A stretch of DNA of 62,707 nucleotides from the NCBI GenBank assembly GCA_048213135.1, contig PS015103.1, positions 57,856-120,562 of the forward strand, in the 5' to 3' direction. The notes under the pieces are model-generated. The model saw only the letters and a program-made list of their open reading frames with translations, was not told the origin of the DNA and did no database searches. The DNA comes from Reclinomonas americana ATCC 50394 (taxonomy: Eukaryota). The position numbers and the translations under genes are program-made. Below, piece after piece: positions 1 through 62,707 of this stretch. Position 1 is the first letter of the stretch. Each line of letters opens with the position of its first letter.

Positions 1-123
1 AGAGAGAGAGAGAGAGAAGAAGAAGAAGAAGAAGAAGAAGAAGAAGAAGAAGAAGAAGCAGTGCATAAGGCGTGTCTTGAACGACTGACGTGCGACAATC
101 GCTGCGAGGCATCTTGTCACTCA

Positions 124-161
<38 letters not shown>

Positions 162-349
162 TTCGTACCCACACCTTTCCTTTCCTCCCCTTTGCCTCCC
201 TCCCTTCCGCATGCTCTTCTCGCTCACACTCCTCATGTCACTCACCCTTGCTTGCACCGCTGATTCACCTCCTCCTGGCATGTCTTGATCGAGACTTACG
301 GCTGTCACTGCAAGGCATCTTGTCACTCACTCACTCTCTCTCTCTCTCA

Positions 350-386
<37 letters not shown>

Positions 387-1903: not shown

Positions 1904-1957
<54 letters not shown>

Positions 1958-10900: not shown

Positions 10901-12383
10901 GCTCATACGACGCCACATGCGCCCTGTTCAGCGTCATCACCGCCGAAAGAGCGCTGACCGCTCTCGGACACACTGGCGCCGTGCAGTGCCTGGCGTGGAG
11001 CACTGATGCCACCCTGTGCGTGACTCGCCTGCCTCGCTCTTCACCTTGATAGGCACTCATTTCGACATGTGTGCAGATGCGCCTCGGGCGGATTCGATCG
11101 CCACTTGGTGATCTACCGGTTCCACTTGGTGGACGACGGTATGACGCCGGTGCTGACTGTGACGCATGACGAGGCCAGTGCGCACCAGGCACCGCTGCAC
11201 GCATTAGCCTTTACGCCCGACGGATCACACTTGGCGACCACGGGAGCCGACCAGGTGTGTGTGTGTGCGTGGGAGCGCTTACTCGCCGCACAATCGTCAA
11301 AACTGACTTGGTTGTCGTGTGCAGAATGTCAAGATATGGCGAGTGCAAGCGAGCGGCACCATCACGCCGTGGAAGACACTGGTTTGTCTCTGAGATGACT
11401 GCGTGCAGAGCCGTCGTGCCTCTCACTCGCTTCCATCGCAGTCGGGCCACACCGACGTGGTCACGTCGGTGTGCTTCACGCACTCCGAGGACACTCTGAT
11501 GTGTGTGACTGGTGCGCTTTGTTGGCTGCGCAGCTGGTCATGTGAAAAATGCTCATGTTGCATGCACAGGCTCGTGGGATGGCTCATTAATCGGATGGGA
11601 CCCGATTCATGGCACGCGGCTGCGCTTCGTGCCCGCCAAGGGCAAGGTGAATTCGCTGTCGTTGAGAAAATCACACGGCAAGCTGGTGATTGTGGCAGCA
11701 TGTGAAGAGGTGAGCCTTTGCCTTTGCCTTGCTTTGCCTCCCTACCCGATGCCCTGATCTCATGAGCGGCCAGGCTGTCCAATCATTCCGAGTCAACGGA
11801 AGCAACATTCTCACCGACCACATCATGATTGGCCACCGAGTGGGCTCCTCGAGGTGCGGTCCATTTCTCTTCTGTTTCCTTGCAGTGTGTCTCACGCGTT
11901 TCGGTGCAGCGTCGCCACCGCGGCGCACGGCGAGTACGCTGTCACGGGCTCCAACTCATCCGAGCTGCTGGTGTGGCGCATGCGCGACGGATTGCTCTCT
12001 TCTGCAATGCAGGGGACCCCGGGAGGTGTCGAGGTGAGTGAATGTGGTGGGATTGAGTGCGATCGAAGTGCCAATCTGCTCACTTGCGTGCACAGTGTCT
12101 GTCCATGACTCCCGACGGTGAGTTTTCTCGACCGCTGTCCTAACTCACGTAATCTCTCTCACCCGTGCTGTTGTTCCTCTGTGCAGGCTCAATGGTGGCC
12201 GTGGCTGGCTGGGGCAACAGCGTGGTGCTCTTCACGGTGGTCGACGGTCGACTCACTGGATCACGGCAAATGTCGTCGGACACGGTGGTGTGCCAGCGTG
12301 CGAACTTTGCCGGGGCAGCGGTGTCGCCCAAGAACACGATTTTGTTGCAACAATTGGGCGCCGTGTTCAAGGACAAGAGGTAG
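1..12383 (+). CDS. Multi-exon STAND/NLR-like protein: helical N-terminus, NACHT-type NTPase, pentapeptide repeats, WD40 repeats and a C-terminal pentapeptide tail (5' partial; exons may be hidden in gaps)
   Basis: GT-AG exons that keep frame, including <1-89, 511-697, 1336-1488, 2983-3213, 3726-4271, 4344-4486, 5263-5506, 5633-6421, 7856-8323, then 8890-9772 (3 exons) and the WD40 exons 10856-12383. Walker A GPPGSGKT near 5936-5959; Walker B-like VAILDGWGD; IRFVHKSVQEYL; pentapeptide LSGADLTRACLAGADLTDANF; WD units such as VAFSPDGRWLLTGSYDAT; stop TAG at 12381-12383. Confidence 0.85.
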
Positions 12384-12540
12384 ATAGCGCAAAAAAAAAA
12401 AAACAAGAGAAAAAACAAACACTGTTCGTTTATTTGTCAACCCAACACGTAATGTTTGCCTGCTTCTTCATGATTCGTTGTGCACTTTCGGGGGGGGAAA
12501 AAGGGAGAGTGCGAGAGAAAGAAAAGAGAATTATCCGGCC

Positions 12541-22973: not shown

Positions 22974-24099
22974 ATGTCAACACCTGCAAGTGCGGACTCC
23001 GCTGGTAAGTGTGACCTCTGATGACAAATACTCATGATGGGATGGGGGACGCGCGCGTGAGCAAACACAAAATGTGACACGTGTCCAAGTGCACTTTTAT
23101 GGACCTCTTTGTCTCAGACTCTTTCTCTCTTTCTTCTTCTTTCCCTTTCACCGCGCTGTGCTGTGCTCTGCGTGTGTATACTTCACCTTTCAATCCCATT
23201 CATGTCCACGCGGACAGCAACCACAAATACATGTGCATGCATGTGGGAGGTTCTCACATGCACTTTCGTCGACTCACACATGCAACATGAATCTTGCAAC
23301 GCGAAATAGGTGGCGGTCGTCTTCACATTGTGGTCGACGGCTCGTACGTGTACAAGATCGCGCAAAAGTACGGCAAGCGTGTCGACTATGAAGCTCTGTG
23401 TGCCACATTGGAACGTGCCGCGGGAGTGCCGTGCGGTGCCAAGGTCTATGTGGACCACATTCCCAACGCCGACAAGCCCTTCTTCAGAGTTTCGTCTCTC
23501 TCTGTGTGTTTGTCGCCAACTCGTCTTCGACCACCATGTGTCATGTTTGTCATGTTCATGCGAAAAAAACAGCAATTACGTCACATGCGCTTCGAGACGG
23601 TCTCGTGTGAGATGAAGACGGAGACCAAGTACGACCCGGTGAAGAAGCAAGAGGTGCTGCTTGCGTACTTTGCTGCTTCCTCCCAGTCCGCATACTCACC
23701 ACCTTTGTCGTGCAGTTCACATGCCGACTGCAAAAGGGAGGCGACGTGTACATTGCGTACTACATCATGCTGTGGGCCTTCGATCCCAAGTGCTCGCACA
23801 TTGCGGTGGTGGCGGGTGACGGCGACTTTTATCCCGTCTTCCGCTTTGTGCATCAGCACCCGAGCAAGCAGCTGCTGGTGGTGCACTTTGAGGAGGGTCT
23901 CTCCGACAGTCTCATGCCGTACGGGCATCAGTTGGTGCTCGATCGAATGCCCGATGTGCTGAAGTCGGTGGGTGGCGGGGGGATGAAAAGGGAAAGGGGG
24001 AAAGGGAAGAAAGAGAGAGAGAGAGCGAGAGAGACAGGAAGTGAGAGATAGACAGAGAGAGATAAACAACACGCACACACAGAGACACACACGCAGAGA

Positions 24100-24389: not shown

Positions 24390-27307
24390 CGTGCCGCACG
24401 CTGTTGATTCTCTGTGGAAAGTCATTGGCTGACTTTGCACGAGCGCCATGCGATGTGGACGCAAGTTCTTTGGTTGTTGCTCTTGTATGAAGAGAATGAG
24501 AGCGCGATGAATGCAGAAGTTCCTCTCGTCAGATCGTACTGTCTCTCGTTGTTCACGCAAGAGTCGATGCCTTTGAAGAGGCGACATGGCTGCAGCCACT
24601 CTCAATGTTGCTCTCGATCTGCAGAGCTTCCTGTGTTTGCGGTTTCTACTCCACTCATTTCGTCTCCTTCTCTTCCGGGCCATTGCTCTCCTCTGCTCGT
24701 TGTTCTCGCTCTGCTCGTTGTTCTCGCTCTGCTCGTTGTTCTCGCTCTGCTCGTTGTTCTCGCTCTGCTCGTTGTTCTCGCTCTGCTCGTTGTTCTCGCT
24801 CTGCTCGTTGTTCTCGCTCTGCTCGTTGTTCTCGCTCTGCTCGTTGTTCTCGCCGTGCTCGTTGTTCTCGCCGTGCTCGTTGCTGTCGCTCTGCTCGTTG
24901 TTCTCGCCGTGCTCGTTGTTCTCACCGTGCTCGGTGTTCTCACCGTGCTCGTTGTTCGCCCTGTGCTTCGTTGCTCTTGCTGTGCTTCGTTGCTCTCGCT
25001 CTGCTCGTTGTTCTCGCTCTGCTCGTTGCTGTCGCTCTGCTCGTTGCTGTCGCTGTGCTCGTTGTTCTCGCCGTGCTCGTTGTTCTCGCCGTTCTCCTTC
25101 CTCTCGCTGTGCTCCTTGCACTCGCTGTGCTCCTTGCACTCGCTGTGCTCCTTGCACTCGCTGTGCTCCTTGCACTCGCTGTGCTCCTTGCACTCGCTGT
25201 GCTCCTTGCACTCGCTGTGCTCCTTGCACTCGCTGTGCTCCTTGCACTCGCTGTGCTCCTTGCACTCGCTGTGCTCCTTGCACTCGCTGTGCTCCTTGCA
25301 CTCGCTGTGCTCCTTTGCTCTCGCTGTGCTCCTTCCTCTCGCTGCGATCCTTGCTCTTGCTTTGCTCCTTTGTCGCTTACTCCCTGCTCGCCTTCTCCCT
25401 TCGCCTTTGCCTTCACTTTCCCTTTCCCTTTCCATCCTTCCCCTTTCCCTTTGCCTTTCCATCCNNNNNNNNNNNNNNNNNNNNNNNNNNNNNNNNNNNN
25501 NNNNNNNNNNNNNNNNNNNNNNNNNNNNNNNNNNNNNNNNNNNNNNNNNNNNNNNNNNNNNNNNNNNNNNNNNNNNNNNNNNNNNNNNNNNNNNNNNNNN
25601 NNNNNNNNNNNNNNTCCTTCCTCCTCCTTCCTTTCCCGCCTCCCCTTTCACCTTCCCTCACTCCTTCTCATCCTGCAGTCCTCCACCGTCTACGGCGACG
25701 CCTCGGTCGCCTACGTCCCACCGGCAACGGCCGCGGCCTCCACGGTCCTGCCCGTGCCCACCACCCACCTGCGCTCACTCTTTGTCGGCAACATGCCGCT
25801 GGAGGCCGCCACCGAGGAGAACATGCTGGAGCTGTTTTCGTCGTTTGGCGACATTACGAACATCAAATTGCGCCCGGTGGTCGGCAAGCCCTACAAGTAC
25901 GCCAAGGTCACCTTCCGCCTGCACAGAAGCGCGGAGGAGGCTCTGAATGCCACCAACGGTTTCATGTTTCACGGGCGCGCTCTGAAGGTGGAGTGGGACA
26001 ATCCGCGTGCCAAGTTGGCGGCCGCCACCACGGGCACCGGCGGTTCAACGGCAGTCGGTCCGGCCAACCCCATGGGCGCTCGTTCGATGGGCCCGCCGCC
26101 TGGATGGAGCAGCGACTCGACGTCGCTTCTGCCACCACCGTCGCCGTACTGGCCGCAGCAGTACGCGGGAGAATCACCGCCGCAATATGCCCCTGCACCA
26201 CAGGAAGTGGTGGTGGGCTCACGGCGTGCTCCTACCGCCACTCCGTATGTGGTGAGTGTGTCATTGTGTGCGCAGGGAAGTTGATCAGAGATGCTGACTG
26301 TTCCTCGCAGCCTGTCGGTGTCAATCCGTACTCGCGACCATCTTCTGAGTCGCTGGCCACCACCACCACTCCCACGCCGTCGCCGAATCAGTCTCCTCTA
26401 CCGACTTTTGTTGGCGGTGGCAGCGCCGCCGCCGTCGCACCCGCCCCAAATCCCGCGATGCCTCCGCCCAACAGCACCGAGTTGTATGTGGGTAATCTGC
26501 GTGCCGACTCGATCACTGCCGAGGCGCTGCGCGATCGCTTCGGCCGCTTTGGCGAAATTCGCGAGATCAACGTGCGTGTGTGTGTGTTGCGAGACGCTCT
26601 GCTGGCTTTGCCGCTTATCTTACGTGTCGCCGGCACAGATCTTCAACCCGAAGCGGTCGTCGAAAATCACCGGCGCCAAGATCACGTTCTTCCTGCGACA
26701 GGCCGCTGAGCAGGCCATGTCTGCCATGCGCAACTCCACTGCCTTTGGCGGAGAACCCATGTTGCGTGCGCTTTTAGTCACCGATAACTTTGTGTGGGTT
26801 GTGTGTGCTGATTGTGCATTTATCCCCACCACAGCAAGGTTGAATGGTACGGCTTCACCTCTGGCAGCAGCGCTCCGCAGCCGTCGATGGAGGACGTGGT
26901 GATGGGAGGGAGAGAACAGCCGCCGCCACCTATTGATGGGTGAGCAATAGATGAGAGAACAGCAGTGCGCTCGTCGGATGATCAACCTAACTCTCTGTGT
27001 GTGTCATGTGCTCTTTTCAATCACAGCTCCAACATTGAAGAGGTGCGTGAAGCCCGTCCTCGTCTCCTCATGTGTATCTGGCTACTCACTCGTTTCGGTG
27101 CAGACTGTCCGCGCTCTGATGGACATGGAGTTGTGCGATGATCCGCAACGCGTTCGTGATGTTCTCATGACAGTCGGAAACTTTGATGTGAGTCATCGCC
27201 ACCACCGTCTGTCCCCCTCATAGTCTTCGCCTCACGTTTATATGTATGCTTGCTCGCAGCGTGCCGTGGACTACTTCATGCACGAGCTCACTGGCGGTGG
27301 CCGGTGA
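22974..27307 (+). CDS. NYN (LabA/DUF88 PIN-like) nuclease domain, two RRMs and a C-terminal UBA-like domain
   Basis: Exons 22974-23005, 23310-23488, 23573-23653 and 23716-23967 give IVVDGSYV..QKGGDVYIA..IAVVAGDGDFYPV (NYN acidic motifs). A phase-0 join to 25679 gives RRM1 (LFVGNMP..YKYAKVTF) and RRM2 (LYVGNL..GAKITF). The tail TVRALMDMELCDDPQRVRDVLMTVGNFDRAVDYF is UBA-like. TGA at 27305-27307. Confidence 0.75.
24690..25320 (+). repeat. Intronic 18-bp minisatellites (ctcgctctgctcgttgtt)n followed by (ctcgctgtgctccttgca)n
   Basis: Tandem 18-mers are directly visible; they generate the spurious repetitive ORFs in all frames here. Confidence 0.95.
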
Positions 27308-30828: not shown

Positions 30829-31429
30829 CTGCGGGATGGGAAAGGGAGGGGGGAGGGAGAGGGAGAAGAGGGAGAGACGGAGAGGAGAGAGAGAGAGGGA
30901 GAGAGAGAGAAAGGCGTCAGCATAACTGCAAGGGGACAACTGCGGCAATGGTGAGCAGATTGCCAAGTGAGAAAGAGAGAGGAAGAGATCACCAACAGAG
31001 AGGGGCCAAGGAACACTCAGAGCGGAGCAGAGAGCGTGAAGCAAAATGAGTTGGTGAGGGGAAGGAAGTGCAACATGAGTGAGAAGAGAAGCGATCGAGC
31101 AAACGCACAATCAGCATGCTCACAGGCCCTCGACAATGAAGTGAGGGAGGGATGTGAGGAAGATAGAGCGAGCAGAGAGTTGCAATCGATGTGCATTGGC
31201 TTGAGGAGAGTGGAGAGTGAGAGCAGAGTACAACAGATCGCCAACTGAGGAAGGAAGCGAGTGAAGAGTGGGGAGAAGAAGAGCGACCACTGGAACAAGT
31301 CGATAAAGCAATCGATGCTTCGTGAGAGCAGAGTGTGAGAGGGGCGCGTGAGTAGAGTGCACAGAAACACGCACAGCAACACTGAGGACGAAAAGAGAGA
31401 GGAGAGAAGAAGAGGAGAGCGATGTTGCA

Positions 31430-32473: not shown

Positions 32474-32586
32474 TGTGTGTGTGTGTGAGAGAGAGAGAGT
32501 TAGAGAGTGAGTGACAGAAGGAATGCATGAGTTGCAATATTTTCAATGTTTGTTTGTTTGTTTGTGTGTGTGTATGTGTATGTGTA

Positions 32587-32623
<37 letters not shown>

Positions 32624-33149
32624 CACGCACTTGTTTGTTGTTGCATGCGTTGTGTGCGGCAATATCTAATGTGACACACTTTCTCTCACTCTCTCTCACA
32701 CACACGCTCTCTTTCTCTCTCACACACACGCTCTCTCTCTCTCTCTCTCCTTGTTCTCCTTCATCACACAATGCTGCATTGCATGTCGCTTCTTTTTGAT
32801 TCTATGCATGCATTGCATCACTCGACTCGAATGCACTCTCTTTGCTGCTGCATTCGTGCATGCGTCATCATGCATGATGCCTCCACTCTGCTCCCTCTCT
32901 CATACACACTCTCTCAGCTCGCTCCTCTCACTGTGCATTTGAGTCCTTATTTCTGTTCTTTGCACGCTCATTCTTTCTTTCTTTCCCTCTCTCTCTCTCT
33001 GTCTCTCACACACACACACACTCATTATTCTCATTCAGCTCGCTCATTACACTTCATGTAAGGCATTTCACGTCATGTCTGACTTGTCTGCCTCAGTCAC
33101 TTGCCTCTCCGTGCGCTCACTTCTTCTCTGCCTCTCACACGCGCGTACG

Positions 33150-38382: not shown

Positions 38383-39072
38383 AAGAAGTCGCGGGGTTAG
38401 AGGGAGTCGGCAATGCTCTTCTGCCTCTGTTCATCTCTTCCCTCATCGCTGTGTGCCTGTGGTGTCGACGAATGACACTCTTCCTTCGCTGTTTCTCTCC
38501 CTTGCCAAAGCGATAGCTGCGTGCCTCAGTGACGATTTTCTTTCTGTCGTTGCCTTTGAGGAGTCCGTGAGAGCACAGAGCTGTTTCCACACGTTTAGCC
38601 GGAGCGAGGGAGAGAGATGAAATGCACAGTAATACTAAGTTCAGTCACTCCATCTCTTTTATCCTGTGACATGGGGAGTGGTAAGTGTGCCTCGTTGGCA
38701 CTCTTCTCTCTCCGTCTTGTCTTTGCCTCTGAGAATGTGGAAGATTAGACTGTGAAAGCAAGCATGTGTTGTTGCATTCTTTCACGACGGACACAGAGAA
38801 AGAGAGCGAGGGAGTTTTCGTTTCTTTTTGCAAAAATGTGCTGCTAACAACTTTGCGACATCAGTGCCCGGTGTCGTCACGTCGTCCACAACCGTGGCTG
38901 GTGCTGGCGCCTCGTCGTCTTCAACTCCGGCAGCAGCGACGACAGCCGCAGCTCCTGTCACTCTCCGTTGCGTACCAACTCCTCCTTCAATCCCTCCTCG
39001 CTTCCACAGACCACTCACAGTTTGCCAACAGCGCCCGACTACGAGCCGGTGGGCAGCTTGGACGACGAGTAG
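34084..39072 (+). CDS. PUF60: Poly(U)-binding splicing factor PUF60-like: RS-rich N-terminus, RRM1, RRM2 and a UHM-type RRM3
   Basis: RVYIGNM..DPSTYRHKGWCFVEY..MGGRNLRVGRP; RLYVGSI..NPETKTHKGYAFVEY..LGGRQLKVG; LILRNML..DLESEVLSEAVKFG..HGRVFGGHKV. Last exons are 38865-38966 and 39031-39072 (TAG). One apparent frameshift near 35575, beside a gap. Confidence 0.85.
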
Positions 39073-39233
39073 TAAACATGCCGAGTAGATGATTTACACA
39101 ACAACATCGTTGTTCATTGTCACAGCATTCTACACGCCCTCCCTTGATGGCAATGCCACTCTCCACTCTCTCCGTGCGACCCAGCCCGTCCACTCTCCGT
39201 GGGAAGGGTACGGCGTGGACGGGCTGTGATGGG

Positions 39234-39310
39234 TCGCCATTGTGTCAGGCACCAGCCAGTGCACACCAAAACAGGGGGGTGGCCTTTGCGGCTGAGCCTT
39301 CATACGCGAG
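39234..39310 (-). promoter_or_regulatory. Eukaryotic SECIS element in the 3' UTR of the selenoprotein gene
   Basis: Minus strand reads tcgcgt-ATGAA-ggctcagccgc-AAA-ggccacccccctgttttggtgtgcact-ggctggtgcc-TGAC-acaatggcga. It shows the AUGA/GA quartet, helix II (ggc.cagcc pairing ggctg.gcc), unpaired AAA 11 nt above the quartet, a possible apical mini-helix (cacc/ggtg) and a lower helix tcgc/gcga. Confidence 0.8.
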
Positions 39311-39388: not shown

Positions 39389-41037
39389 TTAGATCAGCAT
39401 CACCACTGTGGCAAACGCCACAGCAATGGCCGAGGACACCGCAAAGACGTAGTTGGTCTCGCGGCGCTTCTGGTCACGGAATTCGCGCATGTGGCGCGGC
39501 ATCGGTTTCTTCCCAGTACCCTGTGTTTTTTTAGGGGGGAGGTGAGGTGCGGTGTATGTTGCTTTCCATGTATTGTAGAGACGCAACGTCGGGGTTCCAT
39601 TGCTGGAAAGAGGAGAGGGGGTGATTGTGAGCGACAGTATCAACAAAATGAGATCGTCAAGTAAAACACACGCTCACCCCGCGGTAAATCATGCCTCATT
39701 GGCCCTTCTGACCCATCCAGAACACGGTGAATCCAGAGCCAAACGTCTGCAAGGAGGATGAGTGCCAACAACTCACTTCAACTCTTGCAGCGACACATAA
39801 CGCAACGAAAAAGAGCGCAGCGCCGCGCCACCACAGCTCGCGCTGTCCGTGCCACAGGTACGACATGTAGAGCGAGGTCAGCACCAGCGCGATGCCGGCG
39901 TAGAAACGGATCTTGCGGTCGGTGGAGCAGGTGATGTAGCCGCGCTGCGGGGGAGGAGGAGAAAGGGTGAGGACGAAGGGCGAGGAGAAGGAAGGAGTGA
40001 GGGAGAAGGGAGGATGAAGGAGTTGGGGGAGTGAGGGAGAAGGTGTAGGAGTGAGGAAGCAGTCGGAAGGGCAAGGAAGGAGGATGAAGGAGTTGGGGGA
40101 GTGAGGGAGAACGGAAGAGCGAAGGAGAAGGGACGGGTGAGGGAGACGGGAGAAGTGAAGGAGAAGCGCAGTGGGAGGACAATGGGAACGGGCGAGACAA
40201 GAGTACAGTGGATGAGAGGAAGGGCAGAAAATGCGACAAGTGCAAGCATGCGAGTGCACAGCCAGTCACAATCAACAGCCAATAGACAGAGTTCAGCATG
40301 GCAAGAGGAGATATTGTCGCAGAACGCAAGGTGATAACAGAAAAGACTGCACGTCGATGACGGTCACGAACGAGGAGACAGTACAGGATCAAGGGAGGAC
40401 GATGCAACAGGGTGCAAAGGCACAAGAGAAGAGCACCGCATGCCATTTGTCAATCACATGCAGAGAAGGTGACACGAGAAGAAGAAGAAGAAGAAGAGGA
40501 GACACTGCACGGAGAAATTACAAGCAAACAATGCAAGCAATCAATCAATCACGCAAAGAGAGAGAGAGAGAGAGAGAGTAAGGCACATGCACGCAAGGAG
40601 AACAGTGTCTCTCTTGTTTATGACTCTCTCTTGTGTGTGCAAGTGTGTATGTGTGAAAGAGAGAGAGTGAGTGAGAAAGTGAGTGAGAGAGCGAGTGAGA
40701 GAGAAGAACAGTGTCTCTCTCGCCGTCTTTATGACTCTCTCTCTCTTGTGTGAGTGAGTGTGTGTGTGAGTGTGAGAGAGAGGCAAACACGCAAGACTCT
40801 CTCACCCTCTTTATGACTCTCTCTCTCTCTCTAGTGTGTGAGAGTTTGAGAGAGGCAGACACATTGGAAGAACAGTGTCTCTCTCGCCCTCTTTGTGACT
40901 CTCTCTCTCTCTCTCTCTCGCGTGTGTGAGAGAGAGAGACAGAGAGCTGCACACAAATCACTCTCATTCATTCACTGCACCTTGAGGTTATACTCGGGAG
41001 TATCCGGCACATCTGCCGCATCCACAGCACCACTCAT
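39389..41037 (-). CDS. Small multi-pass membrane selenoprotein (MSP-like), 136 aa, with Sec82 encoded by in-frame TGA
   Basis: Exons 41037-40981, 39944-39807, 39746-39678, 39602-39588 and 39520-39389, all GT-AG and phase 0, give MSGAVDAADVPDTPEYNLK RGYITCSTDRKIRFYAGIALVLTSLYMSYLWHGQRELWWRGAALFF TFGSGFTVFWMGQKGQ-U-GMIYRG QWNPD GTGKKPMPRHMREFRDQKRRETNYVFAVSSAIAVAFATVVMLI*. TGA at 39698-39696; SECIS downstream. Confidence 0.8.
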
Positions 41038-41124
41038 CGTGTAACGCGCGCTCTCCCAGCACACACAACGACGGAAACAAACAGGAAGAGGACGAGAGGA
41101 CACACAACAATCAACCATTTATTC

Positions 41125-42937
41125 ATGTTTTCTCGCGGCGCTCTTCATTGCCGTCGGCTTTTGTCGACGTTTTCGGCAAAGGGGATCCGAGTGCCCACTG
41201 CTGGTTTCATTGCCATTGGCAATGAGGTGCTCACTGGCAAAGTGCACGATGTGAATACGTTTAATCTCGCAAAGTGTGCGTGTTCTCTCTCTGTGTGTGT
41301 ATGAGAGAGAGAGAGAGAGAGAGAGATGGGAAGGGCAAGGAGCTGTCTTTGGTTGTCGCTGTTGCATTCTTCCGCCTATCATTCATCAATCTTTGCTTGT
41401 TCGTGTTTCTATTCGTCTCCTCCTCTTTCTGCACTGTCTTCTTGATCTTCCAGTCTGCTTTATTCTCCTCCTCTTCCTCCTCCTCCTCCTCCTCCTTCTC
41501 CTCCTCCTCCCATCTTTATTGTTCCTCTCTTTCTTTTATATCATCGTTGTCTTCTTCTTCTCCTCCACCTCCTGCTCCTCCTTCTTCTCTTTCCCCTCCT
41601 CTTCCTCCTCCTCCTCTTCTTCTTCTTGATCTTCTTCCTGATCTTCTTCTTCATCTTCATCTTCTTCTCCTCCTCCTCCTCCAATCTTCATTGTTCCTCT
41701 CTTTCTTCTATATCATCGTTGTCTTCTTCTTCTCCTCCTCCTCCTCCTGCTCCTCTTTCTTCTCTTTCCCCTCCTCTTCATCCTCCTCCTCTTCTTCTTG
41801 ATCTTCTTCCTGATCTTCTTCCTGATCTTCATCTTCTTCTGCTCCTCCTCCAATCCTCATTGTTCTCCTTGTACTCCACCATCGTTGTTGTTCCTCTTCT
41901 TGTTCCTGTTCGTGTTCTTGTTTGTGTTCTTGTTCTTCTGCTGCTCCTCCTCCACCACCACCACCACCTCCTCCGCCCCCTGCTTCCTCCTCCTCCTATT
42001 CTTCTTCTTCTTCTTCTCTTCACTCATCTCCCTTCGCCCTTCCATCCCTTCCCTCCCTTCCTTCTCTTCTCCCTTCCCTTCCCCCTCCCTCTCAGTCCTC
42101 TTCAAGCAAGGCGTCGACCTCCGCCGCGTCTCCGTCATCCCCGACGACCGCGCCGACATTGTGGACACGGCGAGGCGATTCAGCGAGCGCTTCGACTTTG
42201 TGTTCACCTCCGGAGGCATTGGACCCACTCATGATGGTCTGTTCTTCTCTCTCTCTCCCTCTCTGCCAAGTGTGTGTCGCCCGGCTCTCATATGCGCAAA
42301 AAGACATTACGTACGAGTCGCTGGCGGCGGCATTCGACGTGCGGCTCGCCTACGACGATCGCGTTCTGCGGAAAATGGAGCACTACTACAAGCCGCGGAA
42401 GATCGACGTGTACAGCAACCTGAACGTGAAGCGCATGGCGTTGCTGCCGATTGGCTGCGAGATTCTGTGGACGGAGGACTTGTGGGTGCCACTGTGTGTG
42501 GTCAACCGGAACGTGCACATTCTGCCCGGCATCCCCTCGCTGTTCATGCGCATGATTGAGGCGCAGGCGGAGCGCTTCGTCGGGCCACCCAAGACGCGCC
42601 AGCTGCTGTACACGTTGAGTCGGGAGTCGGCGATTGCCGATGCGTTGCGCGAGGCCGAGGCCAAGTTTGATGTGGCGGTCGGTGAGTGGGGACAGAAGGG
42701 GGGAGAAGGGGGCGTTGCAGGGCGAGGTGGTGAATGACTCGGCGGGGTGCAGGCTCCTATCCAAAGTACGGCGACCCGGCGCAGTTTGGCTACGCGGTGA
42801 TGGTGTCGGTGGAGAGCATTCACGAAAAGGCTGTGCGCGATGCCGTCTCGTACATTCGCAAGAAGAACCCGGATCTGACGCCGGAGATGCCGTTGCCAGT
42901 GCCCACGGCGGCGGCGGCGGCAGGAGCGGCAGCATGA
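41125..42937 (+). CDS. Molybdopterin-binding (MoCF_biosynth/CinA-like) domain protein, FAD diphosphatase / FAD-synthase MPTb-like, with a probable mitochondrial presequence
   Basis: Exons 41125-41275, 42096-42236, 42304-42681 and 42753-42937 give MFSRGALHCRRLLSTFSAK..GFIAIGNEVLTGKVHDVN..VFTSGGIGPTHDDITYESLAAAF..ILPGIPSLF..ESAIADAL..VGSYP. Confidence 0.88.
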
Positions 42938-44012: not shown

Positions 44013-47000
44013 ATGAGCGACGCAGACGACTTCCCCGTGCAAATCGCACGTGCCTCCTCCCTGCGCGCGACAGCTGCAGAGGGCGATCAGCCACAAGCAG
44101 GAGGAGGAGCAGGAGGGGAAGAGGAGTTCCCTCCACTGATGTTCTATGGATGGGGATTGGACTTTTTGCAGTCGACCGAGCTGCGAGAGCAGGTCGAGGA
44201 GCAGGAGCAGGAGGAGGAAGAGAGGAAGTTGGGTGGATATTGTCATCATAATGGGAGAAGATGAAGGGATGAATGCCAGTCAGTCAGTCTCTCTCTGTCT
44301 CTCAGATTCGTTGTCTCTCTGCCTCTCAGTCTCTCTCTGCCTCTCAGTCTCCCTGTCTCTCTGTGTCTCTCAGTCTCTCTCAGTCTCTCAGTCTCTCAGT
44401 CTCCCTGTCTCTCTGTGTCTCAGTCTCAGTCTCTCTGCCTCACTGCCTCTCTGCCTCTCGTCTCTCTGTCTCTCAGATTCGTTGTCTCTCTGCCTCTCAG
44501 TTTCTCTCAGCCTCTCAGTCTCTCAGTCACTCAGTCTCGCAGCCCCTGAGTCTCTAAGTCTTCCTCTCCCTGTCTCTCTGTGTCTCTCAGTCTCTCTGTT
44601 GCTCCATCTCTCAGCCTCTCAGCCTCCCTGTCTCTCCTGTCTCTTGTCTCCCTCCCTATCCCTTTCCTTCCCTCTCCTCCCTCCTTTTCTCCATTCCCAC
44701 CTCCTCCCATCTCCTTCATTTCCTTCTCCCTTTTCCTTTCCTTCCCCCTTCTCCCTTCTCCCCTCCCTTTCCCTCACCCTTGCCCTTCTCCCTGCTCAGC
44801 ACCCTGGACATCCTCAACGACTTCCTCGGCGACTACACCGGAGTCGTGCAGGTCGCCTGCGGCGACACCCACCTCCTCTTCCTCACCGGCACGGGCGAGG
44901 TGTTCGCCGTCGGCTCAGGCGCGCATGGCAAGTGCGGTCAGGGCGACGCCAGCGATCAGTACTCTCCCGTGCAAGTGGAAGGCCTGCCGGAGGAGACGCC
45001 GGTGCTGTTTGTGGCCGCCGGCAAGGACTCCTCACTCTGCATCACTGCCGAGTTGCGTGTGGACGAGGGCGCGCGGCAGCGAGGCGACGACGCTCCCACA
45101 CTCTCACTCACTCCTTCGCTTTCTTGCAGTTTCCGCGTGTGGGGTTGGGGACGTGGTGTGTCTGGTGAACTCGGGCACGGCAGATCGGGATCCGAGCTGA
45201 CGCCGGTGCCAATGGCATTTGCACACGGTGGGCGCGTGTATGAGTGTGCGCTGGGAGAGTGCCACGGTGCCATGCAGATTGGTGCGTGCTCTAATATTCT
45301 CAATTCGTACGAGCGCTGGCGGAGGACTAATGTGCATTGAGTGCAGAGACGGGAGAAATGTACACGTTTGGCGACAACACGCGCAGTGCACTGGGCATTG
45401 GCGAGGCCGAGTGCCATCTGGCGCCGCGCTTCGTGCCCGACTTGCTCGGCCTGTGCATGTCGGGCATGGCCTGCGGACCGCACGTCACGGCAGCCATTTC
45501 TGATCAGGGCGCACTCTACGTGTGGGGCGACAACACCTACGGCCAGCTCGGACTCGGGCACACCAAGCGAGTACCGCGTGCCACTCACCTCGACGTGGGC
45601 GACGCAGTGACCATGGTGGCATTTGGCGTAGGGCACATGGTGGTGCTGACGAGTTGCGTGGAGAGCAGCGGCGTCCCTCATTTGTTCAAGTCCATGCTCC
45701 AGCACATTCTCGTCCAGCATCTCCAGTCTCATTCTCTTCTCTCTCGAGTTTATTCCTCAATACCGCCATGTGCACCACTCTCTCTCCCTCTTCGTCTGCA
45801 TGTCTCGTCATCTTGTTTCAACTCATCCTTCCTCCACGCCCACTTCTCTCTCCTCTGCTTTCCCGCTGCTTTCATTCTCATTCTCACCCCTCTGCCGCTC
45901 TGCCATGTCCATACTCCTCCTTTCTTCTCCTCTCCCTTCCCTTCTTCGTCTTCATGTCGTGCCATGTTTTCGGCCGAGCCTCCTTACTGTCCACTCTTCT
46001 CGCCGCTGCGATCCCCGTTGTGTTCCATCATTCTTTCCATTGTCATGTTGTTTTCAATACCGCCGCTCAGCCATGTCCATGCTCCTCCTTTTCTTCTTCT
46101 CTCCCTCCTCGTCTTCGTCTGCGTGTTGTGCCACCACGTCCACTTATCTCTCCTCGGCTTTCATTCTCGTTGTCCTCTCGCTCGAGTTTATTCTTCAATA
46201 CCGCCATCCATACTCCCTTTCTTCTCCTCTCCCTTCCCTTCTTCGTCTTCATGTCGTGCCATGTTTTTCGGCCCAGCCTCCTAACAATGTCCACTCTTCT
46301 CACCGCTGCAATCCCTGTTGTGTTCTATCATTCTTTCCCTTGTCAAGTTGTTTTCAATACCGCCGCTCAGCCATGTCCATGCTCCTCCTTTCTTCTCCTC
46401 TCCTTCCCTCCCCTTCTTCGTCTTCATGTCGTGCCATGTTTTTCGGCCCAGCCCACCACCACGTCCATTTATCTCTCCTCTGCTTTCATTCTCGATGTCC
46501 TCTCACTCGAGTTTATTCTTCAATACCGCCATCCATACTCTTTTGCTTCCCCCGCTCTCTCCCCTTCTTCGTCTGCATATCCTCGCCTTGTTTCGACCCA
46601 GCCTCCCACCAACTTCACTCTCCTCTCCTCTGCACACTCTTCATTCGTTTGCACTCGCAGTACTCTCACATCCAACATCACCCGGTCGCACACGACCTTC
46701 TCATTCCCTCTCGCCACCAACCACGGCCATTCCTCTCTCCTCTGCACTCCTTGTTTGATGTTTCTTATTCTCGTCAACCGTTTCCTGCTCGTGCATTTTC
46801 TTCTGCCTCTCGAGTTGTTTTCAATACCGCCGCGACCATGTCCATACTCCTCTCTTTCTCGCTCTTCTTCTCGTTTTTCGTCTGCATTTCCCGTGTAGTT
46901 TCACCCAGCCGCTCAACAACCGCCACTCTTCTCCCCCTTCATTCCTTCCCTCCCTCTGGATTTGTTCAATACCGCCGCGACCATGTCCATACTCCTCCCT

Positions 47001-48751
47001 TTCTCGCTCTTCTTCTTGTTTTCGTCTGCATTTCCCGTGTAGTTTCACCCAGCCGCCCAACAACCTCCACTCTTGTCTCTCCTTCTATCCTTCTCCCTTC
47101 ATTCCTTCTCCCCTCTGGATTTGTTTTTCAATACCGCGACCATGTCCATACTCCTCCCTTCCTTCCCCCCCTCATTATCTGCATGTCTCGTCATCTGGTG
47201 TCGACTCATCCCCCACCACGTCCACTTGCCTCTCCTCTGCTTTCTCGCTGCTTTCCATACCGCCGCGACCATGCCCCCACTACTCTATATCTTCCCCTCC
47301 TTTCGCTCTTCCCCCCTCCTTTCCCCTTCCACCTCCCCCCCTCTTTGCCTCACCCATCCCCCTCTATATAGAGAGCGGCGACGTCTACTGCTCCGGCCTC
47401 AACCTCAGCGGCCAGCTGGGACATGTCACCCCCGCCGACGCCAAACGCCGCCACCACTCGTACCGCCTGCAGCACGTCGAGTCGCTACCGGCGCCGGCTG
47501 TACGAATTGGTGCCGCCGCCTCCTACACCTGCGCTCTGCTCGACGACCAGCGCCTCTTCCTGTGGGGTCGCCATCCCTCCACGCAACAGGCAAGTAGAAG
47601 ACTTTCGCTGTATTCTCACGCCGTCTTCTCACACTCTTTGCCTTTTTCATCTGTCCCCCCTCTAAAACACAGGTCTTTGATCAACCCGTGTGCATCAGCG
47701 GTCGTCATGCAGTGCAGAACTTTGGCTGCGGCGGTTCGCACCTAATCTACGCTGTCTACGCGCAGCAGCCGGATCGCAGCGATGTGCAGGTGCGTCACCA
47801 GACACACACATGGGTCTCTCTCTCTCTGTGCATGTGTGTGTGCGTGGGAGGGAGGGCGTAGAGCTCGTCTGCACGAGGCAAAGTGTTTCCTTTGGTGGTT
47901 TTTCGTCGGTACGGTTTCTCCATTTGCAGAGCACGCGCTCCGCTTGTCGTTGTTTCCTCCGCAGTCTGCAACGCGAAGTTCTTTGTGTGTACACGCACGC
48001 ACTCTCTCTTCTGCATGTCTCTCTCTCTCTCTCTCTCTCTTGCGTGTCTCTCGCTGTGTGAGTGAGTCATGTCCAGTACTCTCTCGTCTTGGCACCTCAT
48101 TACGCTGTTTCATCATGATTACGAAACACGTATTGGTGCCCTTCTCTCCGTCGCAATATGCGCTATATGCGGATCGCATGTCTCCTCTCTTCCCTCGCGT
48201 TGCATGCGCGTGTGTGTGTGTGTTGCTGTTGTGCTTGTTTTTGGCGAAACATGCAACCATGACTCTTCTGGGAAAAATGACCGTTGAACGTGCGCGAGTG
48301 ATACGACTCGTTCGCACCTTCTCTCTCTCACACACACGCACGCTCCTTCTTCTCGCACGCTTCTCACCTCCGTGTGTGCATCTGTGCTCTCCACGTGCGC
48401 TCTCCACTGCGTGTGTCTGATGTGATTGCCGCCGCCGGTATCGTGCAATACCAAAGCGCATTTTCCTCTCACTCTTCTCACACACACACGCTCTCGCAGT
48501 CTGCGTTTGTGCGCCTGCCAGTCGCAGCATCCACGGCCAAGTCACTGGCCAGACACACGACTGCGCACGTGGAGGCCGAAGAAGAGACGCAGCAGCAGCA
48601 GCAGCAGCAGGAGGATGTTGATGATGAGTCAGTACCGGCAGCAGCTGTGCCGGCATTCCGGTCGCCGGTGCCGCCCTCCTCTGACTCACCACCGCCACTG
48701 GTGGCCAGTCGAACAGGTAGTCGTGCTGGCAGTCGGCGCAGTGGTACGTAA
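44013..48751 (+). CDS. RCC1-repeat (RCC1/UVR8/HERC-like beta-propeller) protein
   Basis: VVQVACGDTHLLFLT..VFAVGSGAHGKCG, VWGWGRGVSGELGHG, MYTFGDNTRSALG, LYVWGDNTYGQLGLG, VYCSGLNLSGQLG. Exons 44013-44227, 44800-45051, 45130-45281, 45347-45652, 47372-47589, 47673-47789 and 48500-48751. Confidence 0.88.
45740..47290. repeat. Intronic degenerate tandem repeats (core tcaataccgcc...ccatgtccatactcctc) inside the RCC1-repeat gene
   Basis: The motif recurs about 9-10 times within the 1.7-kb intron 45653-47371. Confidence 0.85.
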
Positions 48752-57884: not shown

Positions 57885-60567
57885 ACCGTGTGTTGTAGAG
57901 CAGTTTTTTTTATTCATCTCCTCTTGCATCATAATCCTTCTCTCTCTCTGTGTGCGCTTTGCCTCTCTCTCTCTTTAATGCCCTCTCTCTTTCCTTACAA
58001 TGGTAGTTTGAATAATGGTGTTTGCGTTTCCCTGTGGTCAAGACGAGAGAGCGAGAGAGAGAGAGTGCGTTTGCTCACTCGTGAGAAACGAGAGACCGAG
58101 TGTCACACAGCGCGGAGTGTGAGAGTGCGTAATAAATGAGCTTGAGGAGCTGACAGTCAGAGTGTGTGGAGGGGGCAGGTGTGCGTGTGTGAAGGGAGAG
58201 TGGGTGGGAGGAAGAACGGTGAGAGTGGAGGAAGTAACGAACTTGAAGAATCTGCGGCGATCACTGCGGGACATGTACAGGTGGATGTCCTTTGCCGAGC
58301 GACACACTGCATGCAGTGCAACAGTGAGGTGAAGCGCAGCACGTGCACGCGGTTGGGTGGTGGCGATGATGATTTGAAATTGCTGGATTCGGAGGTGCAA
58401 TATTGCAGTTTACGTTTGGTGATGTGATGCGTGTTGGATCGCAGTGGAGAGAGGGAGAGAGAGAGAGAGAGAGGAGGGAGGTGTGGGTGAGCAGCATGTT
58501 GAGATTCTTCTGCGACATGAGGCGCTAGTATACGATGAATGCGGAATTCGAAAATGTAATCATGAAACTGGCTTCGATTTTTGAATACCAGAACGGCGTG
58601 TGTGATCGTCTCTTCGTCTACGACTTCAGAGAGACCCACTGATCGCCACAGGAAAGGACCGATCAGGTGGCTTGCTCGCCGAAGAAAGGAAGCCAACAGA
58701 AGCGAACCGATAAGGAGAGGACGGGTGTCCTCGACTTGGTGTTCGCTTCTCTCCTCTCTCCCAGCGTTCATGGTTGTCGATGAGGGAGAAGCAGTGCAGA
58801 ATCAGAATCAACATGCTGCTGCCGAGGCCACAGACAACCCAGGCAGCCGCGTGTTCGGGAGAGAATTCGAACAATCCGTGTCGTTTTCCATGTTGGTGAA
58901 TGCATCGAGAGGTGAACGAACGCAGAGAACCCATCTGCTGCTCTTCTTCCGTTGTCGGTGAATTGTGCACAAGGAGCTTGTCTCACAAGCAGTCGTCGTG
59001 CCTTGTCGAAATCAACATGCATGCAATTGCAATCCGACACTTGCAATTGCATTCCTAAACTGCCTTCTCCTGAGCATGCGTTCCCCCACTCGCCCCTCCA
59101 TCTCTGCCGCATTTTACCTTACGCGCATCTGCACTACCCTAATCATTCACCGGCTCCACACTTCCCGCGGGCGGGCCCGGCAAAAAGTCGAAATTTCATT
59201 TGTGTCCGGTCGTCGTTCGAATCGCCTCGGGCCCGCTTCCTCAAACAAATTTTTCTTCACACACTGCACGAGAGAGAAGAGAAAGCCACCACACACACTC
59301 GCGCTCTTTCACACGCGCACGCTCTCTANNNNNNNNNNNNNNNNNNNNNNNNNNNNNNNNNNNNNNNNNNNNNNNNNNNNNNNNNNNNNNNNNNNNNNNN
59401 NNNNNNNNNNNNNNNNNNNNNNNNNNNNNNNNNNNNNNNNNNNNNNNNNNNNNNNNNNNNNNNNNNNNNNNNNNNNNNNNNNNNNNNNNNNNNNNNNNNN
59501 NNNNNNNNNNNNNNNNNNNNNNNNNNNNNNNNNNNNNNNNNNNNNNNNNNNNNNNNNNNNCGATGATGTCTTACGGACCTTGTGCGGGTTGTTCCACACT
59601 CCCAGACATATCTGACAGACAAGTCGTGATGGGACCTGTGAAAAATTGATCCGAGGCGATGATTGTGAGTGACAAGTGCCGTTGTGCGCGTGTTTCGTGT
59701 CATTCTCTCACCGACTCGACGAATCGCTCAATGGCGTACCCAGCTCCGTCCTCACTCATGGTCGATGTCGACGAGAGCGTGTGTGCGAGAGAGGAGAGCA
59801 GACAGAGGAGAGAGAGAGAGAGCGGACTGCTGTTTGCTCGTACAACACTCGAAAATCAAGAGCACGCGCGCGCACGACAGTTCACGCTGCTGAGCCACAG
59901 TGACAGCNNNNNNNNNNNNNNNNNNNNNNNNNNNNNNNNNNNNNNNNNNNNNNNNNNNNNNNNNNNNNNNNNNNNNNNNNNNNNNNNNNNNNNNNNNNNN
60001 NNNNNNNNNNNNNNNNNNNNNNNNNNNNNNNNNNNNNNNNNNNNNNNNNNNNNNNNNNNNNNNNNNNNNNNNNNNNNNNNNNNNNNNNNNNNNNNNNNNN
60101 NNNNNNNNNNNNNNNNNNNNNNNNNNNNNNNNNNNNNNNNNNNNNNNNNNNNNNNNNNNNNNNNNNNNNNNNNNNNNNNNNNNNNNNNNNNNNNNNNNNN
60201 NNNNNNNNNNNNNNNNNNNNNNNNNNNNNNNNNNNNNNNNNNNNNNNNNNNNNNNNNNNNNNNNNNNNNNNNNNNNNNNNNNNNNNNNNNNNNNNNNNNN
60301 NNNNNNNNNNNNNNNNNNNNNNNNNNNNNNNNNNNNNNNNNNNNNNNNNNNNNNNNNNNNNNNNNNNNNNNNNNNNNNNNNNNNNNNNNNNNNNNNNNNN
60401 NNNNNNNNNNNNNNNNNNNNNNNNNNNNNNNNNNNNNNNNNNNNNNNNNNNNNNNNNNNNNNNNNNNNNNNNNNNNNNNNNNNNNNNNNNNNNNNNNNNN
60501 NNNNNNNNTACGCGACTACATAACAGCTGGCGATCGCGTGTACTCATGATCACCACGCGCCACGCAG

Positions 60568-61927
60568 CTGACATGCGAGCATGTGTTTTGCGGGGATTGC
60601 ATCCTGAAGTGGCTGGCGCAGGCGTCGACGTGCCCCGTGTGTCGCCATCGTGCGCACATGGGCAACGTGGCGCCTGTCGATCGCGTCATTGGGCAGCTCA
60701 TTGGCGATCTGCGCCTGCATTGTGGCAACTGGGAGCCGACGCGACCCGACGACGCGGCCGTGTCGTGTCCGTGGGTGGGCGAGTTGTCGGCGGTCGATGC
60801 ACACATGAATGAGTGCGGCTACGTGCGGGTGCGCTGTGATCATTGTCGGCGGGAGCACAGGCGACGGGAGGCGCGGGAGCATGCGGAGGTGTGTCATCGG
60901 CGACCGGTGCCGTGCACGTACTGTGGGGAGATGGTGCCGCGGGAGCGCATGGCGTTGCATTGCGATGCCGAGTGCACCTATCTCCACGTACAATGTCCGA
61001 ATGGGTGCGGTCGTCGCGTGAAACGCGAGGATGTCGGCGCGCACCTCGAGCAGGTGAGAAACGGGGAAGCGGATTTCATGGCGCTTTCGTGTCACGCTGA
61101 CTCTTTTTCTTGTTCTCCCAGGCCTGTCCGCTGCAAGAGGCACCGTGCGCCTACGTTGAATTCGGTTGCTCACATCGCGGTCTCCGCGTGGATCTGCCGA
61201 ACCACGAGAAGGCGGCCGCCGCGCATCACCTGCAACTCGTCACCATCAACATGAGCGAGGCGCTGCAGAACCAGGACGAAGTCATTTCGGTGCTGCGTGC
61301 TGAATTGGCGTCCAGAGACACCCAGTTGCGTGCATCCATTCTCACACTCTTCTTCTGTCATGCTTTGGGATCTCATCTCTCGCACACCGCAGGATCGATC
61401 AGCTGCGTCGCGATGTGGCCGCCATTAGCGAGCTGCTCCCGGCACTGGAGCTGGTGACGGGCCGTCGGCGCATGGTGCAGGCGTCGCCGAATAACTCGGC
61501 TGTGCTACTGGCCTCCTCCGAGTACTCTGGCAACACCGCTCCATCGGCGTCCTCGCCATCGCCTGTTCCTGCGCACACCGCCGTCCGCACCGACCGACCA
61601 CCCTCTGGCCGCTCGCTCTTTCACCCGTACAACGCGGGCCAGTCGCTAGCCGCCGCCATGTCGCTGCCGCCGCCTCCACCACCACCGCCGCCACCGCCGC
61701 CACCACTGGTTGCCGCTCCCTCGGCGGCAGCCGGGCACGCGCATTTGCATCTGCAGAACAACCACCACCACCACCACCACCATCGCTCCGATGAGCAAGA
61801 CTCTGGGTCGTCGTCGTCCGCCGTGGTGCCGCCAGCGCGGTCACCGTCGTGCCAGGCCGCCCTCCGTGAGCTGCAACAGGAGACTCGCGAGTTCACTCGA
61901 CAGATTCGCACGCACCAACAGCAGCAA

Positions 61928-61959
<32 letters not shown>

Positions 61960-62707
61960 GTCACAGCAGCAACAAGCGCCTCCTCCTTCGTCGCCGCAGT
62001 CACCGCGCCAGCGCCGACACACAGTCGCTCATGTCGATTCGGCGGCGTCGTCCTCGTCGTCGCCAAACGCACACAATGCTATTGGCGCTAGCGGCTCCTC
62101 GTCGCCACCCCCCTTCGAGGTAACGGAGAGCGTGAAACTGTGTTGGAGTGTCGACCACGGTTGCAACTTGCACTACCGCGACAATCTGCGCACGCTCTCG
62201 AACACCAACTGGCCCGGTGGCACCTCCGTGTGCACCGACCTGATCATGACGGTCGGCAATCCGGACCTGTCGCCTCTCGCCGCCGCCAGCACTGTGTTCA
62301 CCACCTTTACTGACATGCTCGACAATGCTGCTGCCGTCGGCGGCAGCAACGGTGGTGGTGGTGTCGCGTCGTCATCCTCGTCGCCGTCACCCCGTCACAC
62401 CCGTCCGTACGGGGCGCCACAGCGTGGCACCTTCTCCATGGAGGTGGGCGTGACGTCGACCGGCTTCATCTGGGGCGCCGCGATTGGTGTGGTGACATTC
62501 CATCAGTTCAGCGCGGAGGGCATGTGGTGCGGCAAGGTGCCGACCAGCTACGGCTACTGGAGCAATGGCAGCGTGTTCGCGTGCACTGGCCGCGACACGG
62601 ACGAAGACCCCACATCGTTGCCGCTGCCGGCCCTGCGCGCGTCGATCGAGGTCTCGGACGACTCGGACAGCGTCAGCGGCGTGAGTGACGACCTCGCCTC
62701 GGGCAGC
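60568..62707 (+). CDS. RING finger, TRAF-type zinc fingers, coiled coil, low-complexity linker and a probable SPRY/B30.2-like domain (partial at both ends)
   Basis: [88 protein letters not shown]..HHLQL. The C-terminal FSMEVGVTSTGFIWGAAIGVV..GKVPTSYGYWSNG is SPRY-like. Confidence 0.8.

Follow-up and report, generated by a model that had tools for sequence, protein, structure and literature searches.

A putative membrane selenoprotein gene with an in-frame UGA and a hairpin resembling a selenocysteine insertion sequence in Reclinomonas americana

What might explain a run of exons that keeps its reading frame and its coding character on both sides of a TGA codon? The exons in question lie on the minus strand of a 62,707-nucleotide (nt) stretch of Reclinomonas americana ATCC 50394 DNA (contig PS015103.1, positions 57,856 to 120,562), the whole of which is called here the window. 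Judged from the DNA sequence, the locus is probably an unannotated nuclear gene for a membrane selenoprotein of 136 residues, or of 131 residues without a micro-exon, in which the UGA at codon 82 would specify selenocysteine (Sec, written U in protein sequences). A chain of five exons, their phases, their coding character and a downstream fold that resembles a selenocysteine insertion sequence (SECIS) are directly seen in the DNA. We infer that the exons are spliced as modelled, that the UGA is recoded, and that the organism possesses Sec machinery.

Joining the five GT-AG exons by their coordinates, all of them in phase 0 (Table 1), yields 136 residues, in which the sole internal TGA (39698-39696) is codon 82 and the terminal codon is TAA. 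An earlier reading of this DNA, made from the letters without database searches (the sequence-only reading), had proposed the same exon chain with the same phases, length and TGA position, and the joining reproduces it throughout: the TGA is inside a 69-nt exon, the exons QWNPD and GTGKK...VVMLI-TAA follow in phase 0, and the last exon junction comes 33 nt (18 + 15) downstream of the UGA. The program-made open reading frame (ORF; 39696..40265, minus strand) terminates at this TGA, and it reads through intron 2 because the 60 nt of that intron are in frame and free of stops. A product of 136 residues is obtained only if exon 2 ends at 39807, where a GTTGCGT donor at 39806 makes intron 2 60 nt long. 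A 30-nt intron (39776-39747, with a GTGAGT donor at 39776), which would give 146 residues, was dropped in favour of the 60-nt intron, because only 2 of the 10 codons in 39806-39777 have G or C in the third position (GC3) and because 30 nt is half the length of any supported intron. Skipping of the micro-exon, which is too short for a coding test, would also preserve the frame and would give the 131-residue form.

To judge coding character, a codon log-odds score was trained on 1273 codons from Pfam-supported or otherwise convincing ORF pieces of the window, in which GC3 is 961/1273. By comparison, GC3 is 42/46 in exon 2, 16/22 in exon 3, 4/5 in the micro-exon and 33/43 in exon 5. In the non-exon stretches it is 11/24 in intron 3 and 2/10 in the ten codons that follow the GTTGCGT donor at 39806, a count of two or fewer having a probability of 7.8e-5 if GC3 were 0.8. 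Compared with random windows of the same length that lack stops, exons 1, 2, 3 and 5 score in the top 3-8%, in frame 0 only; this null is conservative, since real genes remain in it. Introns 3 and 4 score at the median of the random windows. Exon 3, which contains the TGA, reaches +6.6/+11.6 in frame 0 and is negative in the other two frames (top 5%), and exon 5 reaches +13.5/+21.5, again with the other frames negative (top 3-4%). Within the gene model, a frame-specific signal is present both before the TGA, in exon 3, and after it, in exon 5, which confirms the earlier claim that the TGA is in frame within a stretch of coding character. The 3' untranslated region (UTR) is mildly positive in one frame. 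Exon 1 scores in the top 4-8% of the random windows, yet its GC3 is only 10/19; a further in-frame ATG is found upstream of it at 41118, followed by T-rich third positions. The length of intron 1 is atypical compared with the 60-78 nt of the reference introns, and the first exon could therefore lie elsewhere.

Could the TGA simply be a true stop? The protein would then end in ...FWMGQKGQ after 81 residues, with a spliced 3' UTR behind it. The ORF track reads it so by default, no homologue shows continued translation, and a last junction so close downstream would let the stop escape the usual exon-junction rule. Nevertheless, the coding signal of exon 5 stands in exactly the frame that is delivered from exon 3, and exon 5 ends in a clean hydrophobic helix, then a TAA, then the SECIS-like hairpin, so that a true stop appears distinctly unlikely. 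If the organism decoded UGA as ordinary Trp or Cys, without Sec, the frame would stay open as well, but this is hardly credible: no in-frame stop codon of any type interrupts the coding pieces on which the codon score was trained, intron 3 has an in-frame TGA seven codons in that breaks the frame unless it is spliced, and a SECIS-like element would be unnecessary.

The splice signals point in the same direction as the coding signal. Introns 2-4, of 60, 75 and 67 nt, begin with the donors GTTGCGTT, GTGAGCGT and GTTGCGTC, and their acceptors are pyrimidine-rich and finish with ...CAG. Intron statistics for the window come from five hand-checked cases of 60-78 nt in neighbouring genes, introns that also identify the host as eukaryotic and intron-bearing. 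Domain continuity requires four of the five, whose donors are GTGCGT in the 65-nt RCC1 intron and GTGCGT, GTGTGT and GTTTGT in the WD40 introns of 61, 70 and 60 nt, respectively. Introns 2-4 fall within this size range and have donors of a like type, and the window's RCC1 and WD40 genes have introns of the donor type and size of intron 2. The splice signals of the candidate, as read from the sequence, thus look like the genome's own, which supports the exon chain.

Table 1. Features of the candidate selenoprotein gene and the introns used as reference, in window coordinates
Feature	Coordinates	Strand	Description
Putative exon 1	40981..41037	-	ATG at 41037, 19 codons, donor GTGCAGTG; least certain part of the model
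Intron 1	39945..40980	-	1036 nt, CT-rich, with an 82-nt tandem repeat; ends ...CCCCCGCAG
Exon 2	39807..39944	-	46 codons; D-R-x-x-R-x-x-x-G motif, first hydrophobic helix and start of the second
Intron 2	39747..39806	-	60 nt, GTTGCGTT...CCTTGCAG; in frame and stop-free; GTTGCGT donor
Exon 3	39678..39746	-	69 nt, TFGSGFTVFWMGQKGQ-U-GMIYRG; flanked by ...CCTTGCAG before and GTGAGCGT after
In-frame TGA, proposed selenocysteine codon	39696..39698	-	Codon 82 of 136, inside exon 3
Intron 3	39603..39677	-	75 nt, GTGAGCGT...CTCTTTCCAG; in-frame TGA at the 7th codon
Micro-exon QWNPD	39588..39602	-	15 nt; strong pyrimidine tract and CAG before, GTTGCGTC donor after
Intron 4	39521..39587	-	67 nt, GTTGCGTC...AAACACAG
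Exon 5	39389..39520	-	GTGKK...VVMLI; basic linker and C-terminal hydrophobic helix; TAA at 39391-39389
SECIS-like hairpin, type II form	39233..39310	-	AUGA, ~11-bp helix, unpaired AAA, apical mini-stem, 3' GA
Reference intron, RCC1-repeat gene	45282-45346	+	65 nt, GTGCGT...GTGCAG; without its removal two Pfam-supported ORFs would be out of frame with each other
Probable RCC1 intron	45052-45129	+	78 nt, GTTGCGT donor; in frame, so less certain
WD40 gene introns	11016-11076, 11254-11323, 11382-11441	+	61, 70 and 60 nt; needed to join repeat pieces

The SECIS-like hairpin aligns end to end with the Rfam SECIS_1 model (model positions 1-64 of 64, window positions 39310-39233) at 19.8 bits. It retains the AUGA, the AAA and the 3' GA of the model, a 19-nt apical insertion gives it the type II form, and its minimum-free-energy fold is identical to the structure aligned to SECIS_1. 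Counted from the TAA, the AUGA begins 85 nt downstream; its distance from the UGA in the spliced mRNA is 250 nt. The sequence-only reading had described a canonical-looking SECIS here; the distance from the TAA and the conserved features, all of which are kept, bear this out, and the score is below the Rfam curated value. SECIS_1 was scanned over both strands of positions 1-13000 and 26000-51999 (39,000 of the 62,707 bases, with matches of about 19.7 bits or more listed), and the hairpin is the sole match. The printed E value of 9.4 per 13 kb spans 4227 families and, by our own arithmetic, corresponds to a single-family expectation of about 0.002 per 13 kb. A crude AUGA..AA..GA-plus-helix pattern occurs at 4 sites in the window, compared with a mean of 0.53 in 30 shuffles; the other three sites (31046-31139, plus strand; 33332-33242 and 444-347, minus strand) have no SECIS_1 match. 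Two of these three are in or near tandem repeats. The hairpin is placed between two convergent stop codons, at 39389 on the minus strand and at about 39072 on the plus strand, and because of this position and its orientation it can serve only the candidate gene. The convergent plus-strand ORF (38848-39072) ends …DYEPVGSLDDE, then TAG; its stop is only about 160 nt from the hairpin, and the two 3' UTRs must therefore nearly abut or overlap. At the Rfam gathering level 0 families are recognised in the window, which is thus without a tRNA-Sec match.

The predicted protein has an acidic N-terminus, two hydrophobic stretches, the GQKGQ-U-GM site, a basic linker and a C-terminal helix. Kyte-Doolittle peaks are at residues 31-49 and 118-136 (2.53 at 118-136), with a Gly- and aromatic-rich stretch between them, and the linker (residues 78-115) has 10 Lys/Arg and 4 Asp/Glu. 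A search of NCBIfam returned 0 families, and a search of the PDB returned chance matches only (designed TIM barrels, E 0.0085, and antibody chains). The one Pfam match is weak and concerns a bacterial domain: PF11127, YgaP-like_TM, matches residues 7-48 of the read-through ORF over profile positions 7-47 of 66 (E 0.019, 15.5 bits).

Is the candidate then a relative of YgaP? The compared system consists of YgaP itself (E. coli residues 106-174) and stand-alone bacterial DUF2892 proteins of 65-90 residues, and the comparison set was made up of E. coli YgaP, 120 YgaP-type proteins and 37 bacterial DUF2892 sequences from whole-genome searches. DUF2892 is common: of 201 genomes sampled from one bacterial phylum, 144 had a match, and the matches numbered 260 in all. 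When the 37 DUF2892 sequences were aligned by hhalign with the read-through ORF, the D-R-x-x-R-x-x-x-G motif and three conserved Gly were matched with P 0.002 (34 columns), and with exon 2 alone P was 0.0008 (16 columns), although the probability across both runs was only 13-25%. Both the Pfam and the hhalign alignments stop with the final residue of exon 2, in agreement with the donor at 39806. Beyond that point, exon 3 has G-x-x-G-x-U-G-M (GQKGQ-U-GM) where E. coli YgaP has G-x-x-G-x-C-G-M (GISGFCGM), and a W-N follows 8 residues after the U in the candidate versus 11 residues after the Cys in E. coli YgaP. The order of elements is the same in the two systems: D-R-x-x-R-x-x-x-G, helix 1, a turn Gly, a Gly-rich helix 2 and G-x-x-G-x-[C/U]. 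The expected topology is also alike, with the ends of the hairpin and the Cys or Sec on the cytoplasmic side. Unlike the bacterial proteins, the candidate is eukaryotic and intron-split, and it has ten extra residues before the U, an additional basic linker and a third helix. The family Cys after the second helix is invariant, in 37/37 and 29/29 aligned sequences. A resemblance to a bacterial membrane family with a conserved Cys had been noted in the sequence-only reading; the PF11127 match, below its cut-off, and the hhalign matches bear this out weakly, and no alignment of the candidate reaches the Cys. A bacterial Sec form was not seen, 0 internal stops being present among the 150 DUF2892 matches listed (of 260), and within the literature searched no paper ties DUF2892 or YgaP to selenoproteins. 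From sequence comparison the link to the YgaP-like/DUF2892 domain is only suggestive, and it is possible, though doubtful, that the candidate is a eukaryotic, intron-split descendant of this domain in which Sec has replaced the invariant Cys.

Several results weigh against the selenoprotein interpretation or against its bacterial ancestry. Exon 1 and the micro-exon are unproven parts of the gene model, and in the 136-residue product the second hydrophobic stretch stays below 1.2 in the 19-residue Kyte-Doolittle mean. The hairpin reaches its 19.8 bits against an Rfam cut-off of 35 bits, and its stability is equal to that of shuffled sequence (z 0.08), half of the shuffles (100 of 200) being as stable or more so. 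The searches for homologues came back empty: none of 3 word-sharing candidates of near length scored, nor did any of 254 longer ones; HMMER gave 0 proteins at E <= 0.001 among 1.84 billion representatives, and the 504 pattern matches from metagenome contigs included no relative. Across these four homologue searches there was no relative with Cys or Sec aligned to the UGA. This blank is weak evidence either way, because the searched collections have few correctly spliced eukaryotic proteins; taken at face value, the lack of relatives among so many representatives would make the candidate a very divergent member of the eukaryotic 'membrane selenoprotein' (MSP) class or a lineage-specific selenoprotein.

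The bacterial link meets with objections of its own. The 15.5 bits of the PF11127 match are below the cut-off of 25.3, whereas E. coli YgaP itself scores 34.6, and the PDB chance matches of similar E value show that an E of 0.02 carries little weight for a protein of this kind. BLASTP against YgaP gave nothing, hhalign against the YgaP-type sequences gave a probability of 0.65%, and an HMM (hidden Markov model) built from YgaP alone gave negative bit scores, the comparison set in the last two cases being too narrow to inform. Our own DUF2892 HMMs gave only 5-8 bits, marginally best for the 136-residue model. Measured from the last conserved Gly, the U comes 10 residues later than the family Cys. 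When Cys-anchored position-specific scoring matrices were applied to the 4994 Cys or TGA sites of the window, the score of the U site was equalled or exceeded at 53 under the YgaP-type matrix and at 546 under the core matrix.

The main rival to a selenoprotein gene is a real gene that encodes no selenoprotein, the other rivals being less likely. Exon 2 would be spliced directly to exon 5, the 69-nt and 15-nt stretches would be intronic, and the hairpin would be a chance look-alike. The product would have 108 residues if exon 2 ends at 39807, or 118 residues if it continues to the GTGAGT at 39776; this longer form has a Cys (VALCVAA) near the position of the DUF2892 Cys. Both of these joins are phase 0 and keep the frame. 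The 118-residue form is attractive in that its Cys comes 9 residues after the last conserved Gly, compared with 12 in the family, its second helix has a higher Kyte-Doolittle peak (1.57), and the core DUF2892 matrix favours the Cys site (-19.5 versus -26.8 at the U); the low SECIS score also accords with such a gene. The YgaP-type matrix, however, reverses this preference, the Cys site being far worse (-32.6 versus -18.6 at the U), and the ten codons that contain the Cys are those with a GC3 of 2/10, so improbable for coding sequence. In the 108-residue form the second helix would be cut to about 10 residues. For either product the intron would have to be 256-286 nt, compared with 60-78 nt in five others, the 69 nt that would be skipped score in the top 5% for coding log-odds, in one frame only, and are bordered by good splice signals of the local type, and the only SECIS_1 match in 39 kb would be left unexplained. 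We consider the isoform unlikely, and the five-exon selenoprotein gene accounts better for the codon usage and the intron sizes.

The window itself suggests another doubt. It is part of a draft eukaryotic assembly with 5823 N in 17 gaps, its GC content outside the gaps is 0.566, and CT/GA-rich simple sequence is abundant in it. The whole chain could be a coincidence in a low-complexity, gap-ridden draft, where composition keeps frames open, or else a decaying pseudogene, and the absence of homologues in the searches made, the weakness of exon 1 and the mildly positive frame of the 3' UTR would all be in keeping with a non-functional locus. Against this, GC3 and codon log-odds alternate sharply at the proposed junctions, the phase is kept across all four junctions, the introns agree with the genome's own in length and donor type, and the N-terminal motif matches a real protein family, if weakly. 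A non-functional locus seems quite improbable in view of these regularities.

How does the candidate selenoprotein compare with membrane selenoproteins already described? MSP was predicted in Ostreococcus and is also present in Chlamydomonas, Volvox and Dictyostelium, according to Lobanov et al. 2007 (PMC2375036), where the Dictyostelium protein has two Sec residues and gives a 75Se band. In the account given by Jiang et al. 2020 (PMC7539508), algal MSP exists almost exclusively in the Sec form, and this would fit the candidate's lack of Cys homologues. As far as those descriptions go, the candidate is likewise a predicted membrane selenoprotein of unknown function, in a class restricted to unicellular eukaryotes, and we presume the host organism to be unicellular. 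Both would use an ordinary eukaryotic SECIS, and the long apical mini-stem of the candidate hairpin is reminiscent of the one described for SECIS elements of Ostreococcus and Chlamydomonas (PMC2375036). On the same descriptions, a difference is that Dictyostelium MSP has two Sec residues and the candidate one. An MSP-type motif around the U was proposed in the sequence-only reading; it is a tentative match, as the descriptions of MSP state no motif. The candidate is at most a possible member of MSP, its likeness to that family being by description only.

SELENOK and SELENOS offer a second comparison. They are small selenoproteins of the endoplasmic reticulum membrane with one N-terminal helix, and their Sec is two or three residues from the C-terminus, in a Gly-rich site exposed at the cytosolic face. 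The candidate resembles them in being small and membrane-anchored with a predicted Gly-rich Sec site at the cytosolic face. Unlike theirs, its Sec (residue 82 of 136) would be well inside the chain, with a helical hairpin before it and the C-terminal helix after it, and Pfam detected no similarity of the candidate to SELENOK or SELENOS.

If the gene is what it appears to be, its expression would follow the usual eukaryotic route, in which a SECIS recruits SBP2 and eEFSec with Sec-tRNA and Sec is inserted instead of termination taking place. The type II SECIS in the 3' UTR, 250 nt past the UGA, would recruit SBP2 and eEFSec with Sec-tRNA, and the ribosome would place selenocysteine at codon 82 instead of terminating. 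The basic linker and Sec82 would then be at the cytosolic membrane surface, the cytosolic side being predicted for both by the positive-inside rule. At that surface Sec82 might have a redox role or a role in sulfur or selenium transfer, by analogy with the Cys of DUF2892; this is the weakest step of the proposal.

Other parts of the window contain genes and repeats of various kinds. Head-to-head with the candidate gene is a plus-strand ORF (41826-42734) with a sub-threshold match to MoCF_biosynth (PF00994, E 4.8e-5, 23.5 versus 26.6 bits), and the two might share a promoter region in the roughly 800 nt of CT-rich repeats between them. GA/CT-rich inverted and tandem repeats at 40560-40960 and 32478-32739 give sub-threshold Rfam matches to microRNA and snoRNA families (MIR533, 29.5 bits; SCARNA7, 27.7 bits), and microRNA or snoRNA genes at these places were rejected as composition artefacts. 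The RCC1-repeat gene that served as a splice-signal reference (44800-45652, plus strand; PF00415, E 1e-20) has GTTGCGT donors at 45052 and 45653 and is followed by 325-nt and 145-nt tandem repeats (45908-47093). Atlas look-ups placed an RCC1 exon in Eukaryota, with Haptophyta most frequent, and another ORF among bacterial pentapeptide clusters, too little for a taxonomic placement. The WD40 repeats (E 3.6e-13) are part of a large plus-strand gene (8890-11500) with a NACHT-like NTPase tail (…IRFVHKSVQEYLAA…) and pentapeptide repeats (PF00805, E 1e-12), which is broken by an assembly gap (10082-10711) and by its introns of 61, 70 and 60 nt. An ORF piece at 23611-24048 (plus strand) matches the NYN ribonuclease domain (PF01936, E 1.5e-6, 29.3 bits, above the cut-off of 24.2). 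An 18-nt tandem repeat of about 38 copies with 91% identity (24683-25367, plus strand) has several frames open, and downstream of it is an RRM-like segment (…ELYVGNLRADSITAEALRDRFGRFGEIREINVR…) at about 26480-26580. Near the end of the window, one plus-strand ORF (60550-61251) combines a RING finger (E 4.8e-9) with zinc fingers of the TRAF type (E 5e-8), and the ORF after it (61304-62707) has many poly-Q, poly-P, poly-H and poly-S runs.

What would a selenoprotein at this locus mean? The mechanism of Sec insertion that it would use is the textbook one, and knowledge of that mechanism is unchanged. If the gene is real, its host uses selenocysteine and joins the Sec-using eukaryotic lineages, and routine ORF and gene calling overlooks a selenoprotein in this organism. 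Relative-less cases like this one have been a route by which new selenoprotein families were found. The possible tie to DUF2892 and YgaP provides a testable idea for the function of the conserved cysteine: if it is true, the exchange of Cys for Sec would single out the DUF2892 cysteine as catalytic, with a redox or sulfur-transfer function at the membrane surface. Descent from DUF2892, if true, would further hint at a bacterial origin, in that domain, of the eukaryotic 'membrane selenoprotein' class, and the 136-residue protein could be viewed as a single-unit form of the class.

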